A stretch of 64,000 bases of DNA from Escherichia phage kaset, in sequence record PV245935.1. One strand, 5' to 3'. The notes beneath the pieces were generated by a model that worked only from the letters and a program-made list of their open reading frames with translations, did not search any database and was not told the DNA's origin. Made by a program: the position numbers and the translations under genes. Each line of letters opens with the position of its first letter. Position 1 is the stretch's first letter. This document shows, one piece after another, positions 6,437 through 57,897 of this stretch.

Positions 6437-6446
6437 AGAGGAAGTT

Positions 6447-6584
6447 ATGCAAAAGATTATTCAGTCACGTTACGTTAAAGTGCGAAATATTAATTGCAAC
6501 TCTTTGCTTTCTTGGAAATGGGCTGTTTACGACTCGATGCTGATTGGCGTTTTAGTTGCTGGAGTGCTTTTTAATATTCACTGA
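6447..6584 (+). CDS. small hypothetical protein (45 aa, hydrophobic C-terminus)
   Basis: ATG 6447 preceded by AGAGGAAG RBS; not in ORF track (under 60 aa); C-terminal MLIGVLVAGVLF hydrophobic stretch. Confidence 0.35.
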   Translation: MQKIIQSRYVKVRNINCNSLLSWKWAVYDSMLIGVLVAGVLFNIH

Positions 6585-6589
6585 ATCGC

Positions 6590-6960
6590 CTGGCAGTGGA
6601 TTGCCGCAGGATTTTACGCGTATAATGACGTATCATCCGTATCAAGTAAGTAGTTGTTTTCAAAAGAATCTTACGGATGATACGGATGATACGCGTTGCC
6701 GCGATACTTTATAGGAATTCAAATAAATTAATTTAAAATTATATATCTAATTTAATTTTATTTTTTTATAAACTCTTATATATGAAAAGTATCCGTATCA
6801 TCCGTATCATCCGTAGCACACCAGTGATAGCGCGGCTTATACACCGATACGGATAAAAATACGCCTCATTTTATCCGTATCATCCGTATCACACTAATTA
6901 AGGCGCGGCTATATCGGTTGTTATACATATTCAAACCATAATTATTGTTTGCCTAAGTTT
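6590..6960. repeat. noncoding region with 9-bp ATCATCCGT/ACGGATGAT repeats in both orientations plus CGTATAATGACGTA box (copy A)
   Basis: tandem copies at 6631-6644, 6672-6695 (inverted), 6791-6816, 6872-6890; a ~45 bp core is nearly identical to 58758-58800. Confidence 0.7.
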
Positions 6961-6977
6961 TTTTCATTAGATATAAT
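6949..6977 (+). promoter_or_regulatory. sigma70-like promoter upstream of protease/scaffold gene
   Basis: TTGCCT-N17-TATAAT, 24 bp upstream of ATG 7001. Confidence 0.4.
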
Positions 6978-7000
6978 ACACAATACTTATTTGAGGGTGG

Positions 7001-31612: not shown

Positions 31613-31669
31613 GATGCACCAGATAAATAAAAGGCCGCCAATCGGCAGCCTTGTTGATTTGATTGTCGA

Positions 31670-32530
31670 TTAAAACTCTTCTGCGTCGGTCGGAGTTTCA
31701 TTGACAGGACCAGCGGCACCACTTGCTTCTTCCTGCTTGCTGCGGTCAATGTTAACGTTGCCGCCAACTACGTCGTTGTGGAACGCTTTGGCGACTTCGT
31801 ACAGGCCTTTGTCCTGCACCAGACCTTCCAGCTCAAACTTCAGGACGGACCAGGTGTTGCCGTCTTTGGACTGAGACGCAGTACCCATGCGAACGATGTT
31901 CATGAAGGTCGGCGGCATTTTCAGGCCCTGCGGAGTCTGAACTTTCTTCTGCTGCAGCGCGGTCATCAGCATGCGAGACGGCTTGATCATGGAAGAAGTC
32001 AGAGACAGCATTGCGCTACCAAATTCACCAGTTTCTTCGTTCAACAGGATCACAAAGTGGTTACGTGTATCTGCGTAGTAAGGTGATTTCTTCTCGTGCA
32101 CCTTGCCGTTTTCGTCTGGAACAAACACCTTACCGTTGATCTCAACAGCGCGGCCTGCCGCGACTTCTGCATCAACGTGCTCTTTGGTAAATTCACCTTT
32201 AAAGCCTTTATCGTCGGACTCGCGACCGCCCCAAAGGATGAAGGTGCGTTTGAATGCACAAGGGATGATCTGCACGCCTTTCTTGCCGTCATACAATTCA
32301 CCAGTAACGGTATTGTACAACATACCAGCTTTTGCGCCAGGAACGTGTTTTGGATCATCTTCGTCGACCATCGGAGACATCTTTTGCAGTACGACGATAA
32401 AAGGAATGGCATAAGCGTCGGCATCGGCACCTTCAAAACCAGCGCCAAAATCGGTCATATCGACAAAATCAGCCATAGCGGACATCTGGGTGTTTTTCAC
32501 TGCAACTTCGGTAGTTTCTTTCTTAGACAT
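31670..32530 (-). CDS. putative ssDNA-binding protein (acidic C-terminal tail)
   Basis: 286 aa ending in acidic tail ...ETPTDAEEF, as in T7 gp2.5-type SSBs; within replication module. Confidence 0.35.
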   Translation of the reverse strand: MSKKETTEVAVKNTQMSAMADFVDMTDFGAGFEGADADAYAIPFIVVLQKMSPMVDEDDPKHVPGAKAGMLYNTVTGELYDGKKGVQIIPCAFKRTFILWGGRESDDKGFKGEFTKEHVDAEVAAGRAVEINGKVFVPDENGKVHEKKSPYYADTRNHFVILLNEETGEFGSAMLSLTSSMIKPSRMLMTALQQKKVQTPQGLKMPPTFMNIVRMGTASQSKDGNTWSVLKFELEGLVQDKGLYEVAKAFHNDVVGGNVNIDRSKQEEASGAAGPVNETPTDAEEF

Positions 32531-32589: not shown

Positions 32590-33147
32590 TTACTTTTTGC
32601 TTTTAGGCAAGGTTATTTTAGCTTCTTTATACTCAAAGACGCTAATATCTTCACTGACTGGATTACCCGCTTCCAGCTGTTCTTTTACGAATGACTTCAG
32701 TGTAGCAGAATGAACGCCTTGTTTCAACGTGGCTTCAATACCGTCTTCACGCAGCGCGGCAACAATCTCTTGCGCTTGCTCGATTTCTTCGCGACCGAAC
32801 TCAGCCGTGACGCTGGACTTGATCAAGCCGCCGTAACCGTTGTTGACAAGCCAATCGAATACTTTCAATTCATTTTCTTTCTTAATTGAAGCATTGACTT
32901 TTGACTCGACCTTGATTTTGGTCTTGTCTTCAAGCTTGATTTCGGACACGCCAAGCTCATCCATAACGCCAGGAAGCAGAACAGTTTTGATTTCACTGAT
33001 GCGCTGCTTTTGCATATCAGCTTCATCTTCAAGCTCTGTCAAAGCTTCTTGGCGTTCTGCCAATTCCGATACTAAGCGCGCAAGGCGCTCTTGGATGCTC
33101 TCAGGAGCGACCTGCGGCAAATCATCTTCCCAATTAATATTGCTCAT
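32590..33147 (-). CDS. hypothetical replication/recombination-associated protein
   Basis: 185 aa, coiled-coil N-terminus; start lies in copy 1 of a 52-bp tandem duplication. Confidence 0.45.
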   Translation of the reverse strand: MSNINWEDDLPQVAPESIQERLARLVSELAERQEALTELEDEADMQKQRISEIKTVLLPGVMDELGVSEIKLEDKTKIKVESKVNASIKKENELKVFDWLVNNGYGGLIKSSVTAEFGREEIEQAQEIVAALREDGIEATLKQGVHSATLKSFVKEQLEAGNPVSEDISVFEYKEAKITLPKSKK

Positions 33148-33240
33148 ATTTTACCTTCTTGCATTAGCCCTTCAACACGGGTCATTTGATATTGCTCATA
33201 TTTTACCTTCTTGCATTAGCCCTTCAACACGGGTCATTTG
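33137..33240. repeat. perfect tandem duplication, 2 x 52 bp
   Basis: 33137-33188 and 33189-33240 are identical (atattgctcatattttaccttcttgcattagcccttcaacacgggtcatttg). Confidence 0.85.
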
Positions 33241-33459
33241 ATAACGTTCAGGTTTCCAAGCCGCCAAAGCCTTCTCAGCGCCTTTTAAAGTTTTATATGC
33301 CTTGATGCCAGGCATAATGACGGTATTCACCCCAGCACCGTTGCCATAATCAAACTCTTTTACAACGCGGAACATGCCGTCAATTTCTTTGACCAAAAGA
33401 CGTTTGAACGCGATTGCGCCAGTAGCTTCATTTTTGTAACGTTCAAGGATGCGTACCAT
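33196..33459 (-). CDS. hypothetical protein
   Basis: 87 aa; stop lies in copy 2 of the 52-bp duplication. Confidence 0.45.
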   Translation of the reverse strand: MVRILERYKNEATGAIAFKRLLVKEIDGMFRVVKEFDYGNGAGVNTVIMPGIKAYKTLKGAEKALAAWKPERYQMTRVEGLMQEGKI

Positions 33460-33533
33460 TTTGTATTCTTCTATTTCGTTTCGATGAAGTAATTATGACT
33501 CATCTTCCGTGACAAGTCAAATTATTTTTGATA

Positions 33534-35057
33534 TTAATTCATCTTTTTGCCGTCGAGGATGTGATCAGCAAGCATAGACTTCATACTTAGTGAACGCTGA
33601 ATTTCTTCATCGATGGTGTCAACACCAATAAAATCAACATACAACACGCTTGATTTGGTGCCGATGCGGTGATTTCGGTCTTCGGATTGCTTGCGCAACT
33701 CGTTGTCGTAGTTGCAAGAATAATAAATTGCCAAGTCAGCGGCTGTAAGCGTGATGCCGATGCCTGCCGCAGCAGCGTGGCAGACCAATACTTGTGTTCC
33801 ACCATTCTCGACTGTGTTTTTCTGGAAGTCATCAATCAAGAACTCACGCTGCTCTTTTGACGTTTCACCGTTGTATACACCCGTGACCACGCCTTCAGAC
33901 TCAAGCCAATCCTTAATCTGGTTCATCTCTTCCTTAAAGATGGCCCAAACAATGAACTTGCGCTCTGGGTCGTCTTCCAGCACCCCTTCCACATAATCCT
34001 TAAAGGCCGTGAATCGTGGGTTGTCTTCCATGTAGACCATCTCATCATACACCTTAACAAAACCGGATGTCACCTGCTTCATCTTAGTGCGCGACGCGAT
34101 CATCTCAAACTTGACGTTTTCTTCTTCGCCCTTGTATTCCATCAAATAGTTGTACTCATTCTTGAGTTCATCGTAAACATCGCGTTGTTTAGGCGACAAC
34201 TCGAAGTCAATAAACTTGTACACCTTCTCTGGAAGGTCAGGCAAGTATTCTGCTTTTGTTGCACGAAAATAGTGCGGTTCCATCAGCCGGATAAGCTTGT
34301 CAAGGTTCTTGTACATCGGTCGGCCAAACTGGTCTTTGCGCGGCACTTGCGGAATCCCATAGCCATTGCCGCCGATTTTCTTGAGGATGGCTTGCATCTC
34401 TGGGTCGTGCGCTTCAAGCAGCACAGTGAATTCAGAGTTGAAGGCGCGGAAAGATTTGGTGCCGAGCAATCCTGCTTCAAGGAAGTGATATTGCATGTAA
34501 ATATCAGCAGGCGAGCGCGGCAACGGCGTGCCAGAAAGGATTCGACGGGCCTTTGCCAGCCGTCCCAATTCCACAACCTTGATGGAGCGTTTGGCTGTGT
34601 TATTCTTGATGCGCGTTGATTCGTCGATGATCATCAGGCAGCGGTACTTCTTCAAGACCGACTCGATGTGTTGATAACCGACTGGTGTGTTGACAGTATC
34701 GATGTTGAATGAGAAGATGCGCGCAGGCACTTCGCCTTCGGGGTAGTGATCAGCAAACATCTTCTCCCAAAGCGCCTTGCCCTTTTTAGTTTTCATCTTA
34801 TCATTGCCGCGCCAGTAGTGCCCAATCCACTTGATGGAAAGGTGTTCTGGTGCTTCACGACGAATCCAGTTTGAGTGGACGCCGTTTGGAGCGATGACGA
34901 CCATGGCATCGAACGCGCCAGCGGTGAAGTGCTTTTCAAACTCTGCCAAAGCGGTCCAAGTTTTACCAAGACCCTGTTCCATAAAATAGGCAAAGTATTT
35001 TCTGCGGCCTGCTTTATCAAGCGCCAATAGTTGGTGGCGCATTCCTTGTGTTTTCAT
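33534..35057 (-). CDS. SNF2-family (DEAD/DEAH-like) helicase
   Basis: 507 aa; GLGKT Walker A, IIDESTRIKN DExx box, LSGTPLPRSP motif, C-terminal QSEDRNHRIG. Confidence 0.75.
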   Translation of the reverse strand: MKTQGMRHQLLALDKAGRRKYFAYFMEQGLGKTWTALAEFEKHFTAGAFDAMVVIAPNGVHSNWIRREAPEHLSIKWIGHYWRGNDKMKTKKGKALWEKMFADHYPEGEVPARIFSFNIDTVNTPVGYQHIESVLKKYRCLMIIDESTRIKNNTAKRSIKVVELGRLAKARRILSGTPLPRSPADIYMQYHFLEAGLLGTKSFRAFNSEFTVLLEAHDPEMQAILKKIGGNGYGIPQVPRKDQFGRPMYKNLDKLIRLMEPHYFRATKAEYLPDLPEKVYKFIDFELSPKQRDVYDELKNEYNYLMEYKGEEENVKFEMIASRTKMKQVTSGFVKVYDEMVYMEDNPRFTAFKDYVEGVLEDDPERKFIVWAIFKEEMNQIKDWLESEGVVTGVYNGETSKEQREFLIDDFQKNTVENGGTQVLVCHAAAAGIGITLTAADLAIYYSCNYDNELRKQSEDRNHRIGTKSSVLYVDFIGVDTIDEEIQRSLSMKSMLADHILDGKKMN

Positions 35058-53254: not shown

Positions 53255-53259
53255 ATATC

Positions 53260-53292
53260 AAAAAGGTGAGCTAAATGCTTGCCTTTTCTTTT
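53260..53292 (+). terminator. hairpin + T-tract (copy 1 of repeated terminator-promoter cassette)
   Basis: AAAAAGGTGAGCtaaatGCTTGCCTTTT then CTTTTAT; same element at 54522-54553. Confidence 0.5.
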
Positions 53293-54518: not shown

Positions 54519-54521
54519 TTC

Positions 54522-54553
54522 AAAAAGGTGAGCTAAATGCTTGCCTTTTTATT
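54522..54553 (+). terminator. hairpin + T-tract (copy 2 of repeated terminator-promoter cassette)
   Basis: CAAAAAGGTGAGCtaaatGCTTGCCTTTTTATTT; followed by TATACT and AAGGAG RBS. Confidence 0.5.
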
Positions 54554-54596
54554 TGCCTGTATTATACTTAGTTCATCAAGCAAAGGAGAATTGATT

Positions 54597-57245: not shown

Positions 57246-57897
57246 TGTTGATTATTGCACGCAGCACGCTTGTACATGCGAAGTTGTAAAGGATGATGAA
57301 GGCGGCTACGTTGAATATGAGGACTATGCCGCGCTGGAAGCGAAATATAGTTCTCTTACGTACATTGACAGCGAACCGTTTGCATACATCATTCAGGACA
57401 AGTATGAAAGGGAGAAAGGATTAGATGGTCATCTCAGTCGCAGTCATGTATCCAAATATGTTAGCCAGGAAGACATCAACGAGCATGAAATAACTTGCAT
57501 CCCGCTCTATCGCCAAGCACAGTTGGCGATAGCAATAAAACCGTTGGCAAAAACCGATGATGAGGACTACGCCGCGCTGGAAGCGAAATATGGTGAAGCG
57601 CAACGCGAGTTGGTTGCATTACGCTCACAGGTCCGTGATGCGTCGGCGCTCGTTAAGCAGTTGCACGACGTTGTTGCTACTATAGGCGTGGATGTTGATG
57701 CTTGCGAAAAGCAGGAAGAAGCGTGGACCGCGTGGTTTGGTGGAGAGAATCCGGTGCCTGGGAAGATGGTTGTGTTTGAGTTGTTAAACGGTTACAAATC
57801 AAAAGAGGCTGTGCCTTCGGATAATTTGAACTGGGGTGCAGTGGCAAGCCCTTTTGGCGAAGACATTGTTGCTTATCGGGTCGTTAAGGAGGGGTGA
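57229..57897 (+). CDS. hypothetical protein with internal repeat and W-x-W-GG-NPVPGK C-terminal module
   Basis: 222 aa; EDYAALEAKY occurs twice; C-terminal WTAWFGGENPVPGKMV. Confidence 0.45.
   Translation: MIQRYDVDYCTQHACTCEVVKDDEGGYVEYEDYAALEAKYSSLTYIDSEPFAYIIQDKYEREKGLDGHLSRSHVSKYVSQEDINEHEITCIPLYRQAQLAIAIKPLAKTDDEDYAALEAKYGEAQRELVALRSQVRDASALVKQLHDVVATIGVDVDACEKQEEAWTAWFGGENPVPGKMVVFELLNGYKSKEAVPSDNLNWGAVASPFGEDIVAYRVVKEG

Follow-up and report, generated by a model that had tools for sequence, protein, structure and literature searches.

Microhomology-mediated events have been described as the dominant origin of tandem duplications across all domains of life and in viruses (bioRxiv 10.64898/2026.02.28.708716). 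They double a segment head to tail, typically over tens of base pairs, with direct repeats at the breakpoints and perfect copies. Many are sub-clonal and can revert, and in the MTDfinder-pro definition at least 1 bp of perfect breakpoint microhomology is sufficient. Gene junctions with ATGA/TGATG overlaps, in turn, are the setting of termination-reinitiation coupling (Huber et al. 2019, PMC6728339; 2023, PMC10666635), whose canonical form is a −4 overlap with the SD inside the upstream ORF. In three E. coli gene pairs, a stop-to-start distance of 38 nt cut reinitiation by 80–90% or abolished it (PMC10666635). Tandem copy number can also change by recombination in lytic E. coli phages, as in the amplification of tifA during experimental evolution of T4; such events amplify whole genes for dosage (PMC9391042), whereas the event described here involves 52 nt and adds no gene copy.

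The locus lies in the window, by which we mean the whole 64,000-nt stretch of Escherichia phage kaset DNA (PV245935.1). The phage belongs to Wifcevirus, a genus of E. coli myoviruses with genomes of ~68 kb. The features on which the analysis turns are the following.

33492..33520, minus strand: promoter-like site TTGACT-17-CATAAT upstream of the 87-aa gene, 10/12, a consensus match only
33196..33459, minus strand: 87-aa gene, phrog_27467, no Pfam match; from the ORF table, unaltered by the duplication
33241..33243, strand not applicable: perfect 3-nt microhomology, ATA on the plus strand, also at 33137-33139 and 33189-33191; from the period-52 comparison
33189..33240, minus strand: repeat copy 1, distal on the mRNA, identical to 33137-33188
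33137..33188, minus strand: repeat copy 2, proximal, the copy that aligns to the single copy of eight relatives
33182-33199, minus strand: mini-ORF 1, MSNIK and stop, from translation; its ATG overlaps the stop of the 87-aa gene (ATGA)
33144-33185, minus strand: mini-ORF 2, MTRVEGLMQEGKI and stop, from translation; a copy of the C-terminus of the 87-aa protein, with its ATG overlapping the stop of mini-ORF 1
33153..33158, minus strand: authentic SD of the 185-aa gene, GAAGGT, 5-nt spacer, duplex of −5.8 kcal/mol with the anti-SD
32590..33147, minus strand: 185-aa gene, PF23984 DUF7307 (“Pam3 gp33-like”); from the ORF table, unaltered by the duplication
31670..32530, minus strand: 286-aa gene, PF23977 Pam3_Gp34-like, last of an apparent three-gene operon; from the ORF table and a domain match
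31631..31652, minus strand: terminator-like hairpin after the 286-aa gene, a sequence prediction

By direct string comparison, positions 33137-33188 and 33189-33240 agree letter for letter, and Tandem Repeats Finder reported the array at 33137-33243 with a period of 52, 2.1 copies, 100% matches, and a score of 214. The period-52 identity therein extends over 107 nt, which equals two units plus the 3 nt (ATA) of microhomology. No second perfect tandem repeat longer than ~25 nt was found by the same program in the 64-kb window. Copy 1 runs on unbroken from the 87-aa gene, whose last 13 codons and stop it contains along with a decoy SD/ATG, while copy 2 consists of a redundant 3′ end of that gene followed by the 185-aa gene's authentic SD and ATG. 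A sequence-only reading of this DNA had described a perfect 52-bp tandem duplication over a gene junction and, on the minus strand, a resulting chain of ATGA-linked mini-ORFs. String comparison and Tandem Repeats Finder bore out the duplication, and the ORF table and translations showed the chain to be accurate in every detail. The 87-aa, 185-aa, and 286-aa genes appear to form one operon of the Wifcevirus replication module; phage Mansfield has an annotated terminator at the position equivalent to the hairpin that follows the 286-aa gene.

We compared positions 32590-33540 (951 nt) with 50,697 phage records by megablast. This returned 28 records at 95–99% identity, all of them from Wifcevirus phages that infect E. 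coli or Shigella. In 27 of the 28 GenBank records, the 951-nt query corresponded to 898–901 nt of the record (mostly 899), or ~52 fewer; 27 of the 28 Wifcevirus carry one copy of the unit along with the ancestral ATGA overlap, and in the 28th, TH32, a gene is inserted at that point. We also aligned eight relatives base by base (Mansfield, RCIP0319, ECML-117, WFH, WFC, Bas98, Eco4M-7, and FEC19). All have a single unit, which leaves a clean gap of 52 nt in the alignment with the window, while the flanks are otherwise nearly invariant; their annotations give a 4-nt overlap between the 87-aa and 185-aa genes. In IMG/VR, four contigs have the unit, each of them once. Exact-protein look-ups with the 185-aa and 87-aa products added 20 further Logan/ENA/NCBI loci, every one with the 4-nt overlap, one unit, and no duplication junction. 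An identical 185-aa protein is encoded on 15 other contigs, all with the single-copy junction, and an identical 87-aa protein is present on many other contigs.

Searches with a 35-mer and a 20-mer spanning the junction between the copies gave no match in IMG/VR, GTDB (one genome per species), or JGI metagenome contigs. Taken over GenBank, IMG/VR, and Logan/ENA/NCBI, the two-copy arrangement is absent from about 45 related genomes and assemblies. The 20 protein-matched loci included no independent assembly of the same isolate, as all were at most ~97% identical to the window. The comparison with related phages that had been proposed as a check on the sequence-only reading yielded one copy in all comparable relatives. 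Because the nearest of these are ~96–97% identical to the window (~96.6% over 24 kb), the event is placed on the terminal branch leading to this genome, and on the genomes compared here the duplication is private to that branch. The identity of the two copies dates it weakly, since we estimate that only 0.6–1.8 differences would be expected even at the age of the split from the nearest relative.

The breakpoints coincide with a short repeat. On the plus strand, the ancestral sequence reads CAATTA / ATATTGCTCAT ... GGGTCATTTG / ATAACG, where slashes mark the breakpoints. An imperfect direct repeat is found at these sites, CAATTAATA (33131-33139) vs. CATTTGATA (33183-33191), in which 7 of 9 positions are alike (CAaTTaATA and CAtTTgATA) and the final 3 nt are identical. 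On the minus strand, the same sites read TATcAAaTG in the 87-aa gene (Gln74-Met75) and TATtAAtTG in the 185-aa gene (codons 4–6). When 52-nt duplications were simulated at all window positions, at least 3 nt of perfect microhomology occurred in 5.3% of them, and the 3-nt microhomology taken alone corresponds to a p of about 0.05. At least 7 of 9 matches in this register occurred at 0.26% of simulated sites, a figure that is indicative only given that the register was picked post hoc.

Both features that define a microhomology-mediated tandem duplication at the sequence level are therefore present: an ancestrally single-copy segment has gone from one to two copies head to tail, and the breakpoints share at least 1 bp of microhomology, here 3 nt. 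In the slippage mechanism that we propose, the end of a nascent strand would re-pair, during replication or repair, 52 nt away at the other member of the short imperfect direct repeat. The 52 nt between the two sites would thereby be copied a second time, head to tail. Since the unit carries the upstream stop together with the downstream SD/ATG, each ORF and the downstream ribosome-binding site would still be present in one intact copy. Both ORFs and that ribosome-binding site are indeed intact in the window, and their survival is the likely reason that the event was tolerated. We consider it probable that the locus records a recent, private, and near-neutral microhomology-mediated tandem duplication in one phage lineage. 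It looks like an ordinary microhomology-flanked tandem duplication, a kind of event already known, and is distinctive only in having landed on a stop/start overlap and so regenerated both ORFs.

To describe how often a duplication of this size spares its surroundings, we used a crude gene set (91 ORFs, 89% coding) and the rule that a duplicated segment [p, p+51] spares a gene unless the unit lies strictly within that gene. By this rule, just 17.8% of random 52-nt tandem duplications in the window spared all ORFs, and only 3.5% of positions gave a unit holding the facing ends of two neighboring genes. As 52 is not divisible by 3, duplications at the other 82% of positions would be frameshifts. 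Survivorship alone accounts for the location, so no function need be invoked, and an ORF-sparing position combined with microhomology fits the pattern of a biological event filtered by selection. Duplications over a stop/start overlap regenerate both genes and thereby escape purifying selection. The junction is also permissive, as TH32 bears an extra ORF exactly between the 87-aa and 185-aa genes.

In TH32 (Escherichia virus TH32, MT446405), the inserted ORF encodes 82 aa (MSKKVLLIGPRNSGKTT...) at L003:845-1093 on the minus strand, corresponding to ~33147/33196 of the window. Its N-terminus is P-loop-like, and it matches phrog_2107 (thymidylate kinase) and, weakly, PF00004 (AAA, E = 2.9e-4). 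This insertion marks the junction as a place of gene gain in Wifcevirus.

The duplication nevertheless altered the spacing of the two real genes. The ancestral 87-aa/185-aa pair is a canonical case of the coupled arrangement, with its −4 overlap and its SD inside the upstream ORF, and 4-nt and 1-nt overlaps are found in 16 and 10, respectively, of the 75 same-strand neighbor pairs in this genome. In the window, by contrast, the stop of the 87-aa gene (33196) and the ATG of the 185-aa gene (33147) are 48 nt apart, such that the −4 overlap has become a +48 gap and neither of the overlaps expected of a coupled pair (−4 or −1 nt) remains between the real genes. What lies between them on the minus strand is a relay that runs from the 87-aa stop through MSNIK and MTRVEGLMQEGKI to the 185-aa ATG, and each stop/ATG pair along it reads ATGA, so that formally every step is an overlap of the coupled type. 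A relay of coupled pairs would also have, for every start, an SD within the ORF that precedes it. The native context, with the SD GAAGGT and a duplex of −5.8 kcal/mol, is retained in step 1 (from the 87-aa stop to the MSNIK ATG, which is preceded by the duplicated SD GAAGGT at 33205-33210) and in step 3 (from the mini-ORF 2 stop to the authentic ATG). Step 2, the start of mini-ORF 2 (ATGACC), has no usable SD and a duplex of −1.9 kcal/mol. RNA structure at the authentic start showed no meaningful predicted change, with a mean unpaired probability of 0.55 for one copy vs. 0.59 for two.

Given the +48 gap, the SD-less middle step, and the distances reported to impair reinitiation (PMC10666635), coupling has most likely been weakened or lost altogether rather than fine-tuned. 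Termination-reinitiation from the 87-aa gene has probably disappeared for the most part or been reduced to weak passage through the relay, and the 185-aa gene would be translated mainly by direct initiation from its own intact SD. Both mini-ORFs are by-products of the duplication, and we expect its functional effect to be modest.

The 52-nt unit also contains a sigma-70-like match on the minus strand, TTGAAG-16-TAAAAT (9/12), with copies at 33200-33227 and 33148-33175. In the single-copy arrangement, its −10 element abuts the ATG and a transcript would start inside the ORF. If transcription began near 33193, as placed by the distal copy (33227..33200), the transcript would take in the 185-aa gene's authentic SD and ATG. 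We regard this promoter-like element in the distal copy as a speculative lead only.

Three other explanations were weighed against a duplication of this kind. Chance similarity, or membership in an old conserved repeat family, has next to no probability: the array, with 52/52 identity and 107 nt in register, is the sole one of its kind in the window, which rules out chance, and the unit is single in every relative, which rules out an old family. An assembly artefact is unlikely but is the more serious concern. Here, a terminally redundant contig would have been opened at this point and the record rotated with its overlap untrimmed, leaving an internal duplication that is absent from the phage. 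Short-read assembly collapses terminal repeats as long as those of Wifcevirus, and the contig then closes on itself with an arbitrary opening point, which makes such an origin conceivable; the repeats in question measure ~3.7 kb (PMC6563267). The duplication is, as an untrimmed circular-contig overlap would be, short, perfect, and unique to one apparently rotated record. Rotation after assembly is itself probable, since the locus coordinate 32590 falls near those of the re-oriented records Bas98-100, RCIP0363, and OZ035737 (32556-32587). A length of 52 could also be read as k − 1 for a k of 53. However, the period left by an untrimmed overlap is the length of that overlap, and the usual odd values of k that SPAdes-type circular contigs leave (21, 33, 55, 77, 99, and 127) do not include 52. 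The repeat is internal rather than at the ends of the record, and typical reads are longer than a 104-nt structure, which assemblers normally resolve correctly. Moreover, the position of an artefact should be random, whereas this repeat spares the ORFs (17.8%) and sits on microhomology (at most 5.3%), two independent coincidences that jointly give a likelihood ratio of tens in favor of a biological event and speak against an artefact, though not decisively. Two variants of a technical or structural origin were considered separately and rejected: a SPAdes overlap at k = 55 (52 + 3), because an untrimmed k-overlap has period k and the period here is 52, and a physical genome end at the repeat, because the ~3.7-kb terminal repeat of Wifcevirus is located elsewhere.

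It is very unlikely that the arrangement is instead a selected mutation or device altering expression of the downstream DUF7307 and Pam3_Gp34-like genes, whether through the ATGA-linked mini-ORF relay, an extra SD that would serve as a standby site for ribosomes, or a relocated promoter-like copy. Such a role would draw on the ATGA overlap at every link of the chain, on the native SD kept by the first and last relay steps, on a junction that tolerates change (as shown by the TH32 gene insertion), and on the 9/12 promoter-like match, which is correctly placed in the distal copy and useless in a single copy. Yet the arrangement is conserved in none of the about 45 related genomes and assemblies, and the zero divergence between copies is consistent with a recent event. 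Relay flux can only be below that of the native overlap owing to the SD-less second step (−1.9 kcal/mol), a 38-nt stop-to-start gap in E. coli removes 80–100% of reinitiation (PMC10666635), and 9/12 promoter-like matches are common, with 10 found in 3.7 kb vs. 4.1 ± 2.3 expected by chance. The sequence-only reading had left the choice between a very recent duplication or assembly artefact and a device that tunes translational coupling. Its first alternative agrees with a repeat that is perfect, private, and flanked by microhomology, while the second is not supported, as nothing about the arrangement is conserved and the middle step lacks an SD; judged by conservation, the locus would belong to no conserved regulatory class. 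The most specific adaptive version is a long shot: a freshly selected mutation that would uncouple the DUF7307/Pam3_Gp34-like replication-module genes from the 87-aa gene and would also set a copied weak promoter, together with an SD standby site, 52 nt upstream. If it were true, expression of these two genes would be altered, for example during adaptation to the isolation host, and the locus would be a natural junction-spanning micro-duplication that rewires an operon while leaving its proteins untouched.

As a microhomology-mediated duplication, the locus carries little biological weight, being one instance of the commonest route to tandem duplication that happens to be harmlessly placed. 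Its practical value lies in curation, in that the 52 nt should be confirmed before both mini-ORFs are annotated. If real, the pair of arrangements would also be a natural construct, a −4 overlap vs. a +48 gap in identical local context, with which the dependence of the 185-aa gene on coupling could be gauged.

Several further observations concern the flanking genes. Sequence searches of the PDB with the two downstream genes (185 aa and 286 aa) gave nothing significant. The 286-aa Pam3_Gp34-like protein (31670-32530, minus strand) has an acidic C-terminal tail whose last residue is aromatic (...TPTDAEEF), similar to the tails of single-stranded-DNA-binding proteins. Seuratvirus siphophages have homologues of the 87-aa gene at the same length and with ~85–88% protein identity (CAjan, L010:1494-1757; GottfriedDienst, L011:1502-1765), where they are followed by a terminator-like hairpin instead of an overlapping gene. 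This distribution points to horizontal exchange of the 87-aa gene between unrelated phage lineages. The short Seuratvirus matches had also raised the unit as a candidate mobile or recombinogenic element, which we rejected because they are homologues of the 87-aa gene without the repeat. In Klebsiella phage 1611E-K2-1 (Jedunavirus, L012 ~1531-1575), an unannotated reading frame ends in ...MTLAEGLMQEGKI followed by a stop.

Other repeats occur elsewhere in the window. An iteron-like 9-mer in tandem, TACGGATGA twice (ATCCGTATC on the other strand), has five occurrences vs. 0 expected by chance, at 6672, 6789, 6798, 6871, and 58760 (regions 6630-6900 and 58756-58821). These sites lie in two long AT-rich stretches without ORFs of at least 60 aa (6437-7000 and about 58700-58990), which have a 66-nt segment in common at 85% identity and may be regulator-binding sites or an origin-like region. 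In addition, two 35-nt direct repeats at 94% identity occur at 53258-53292 / 54520-54554 (1262 nt apart) and 57317-57351 / 57560-57594 (243 nt apart).
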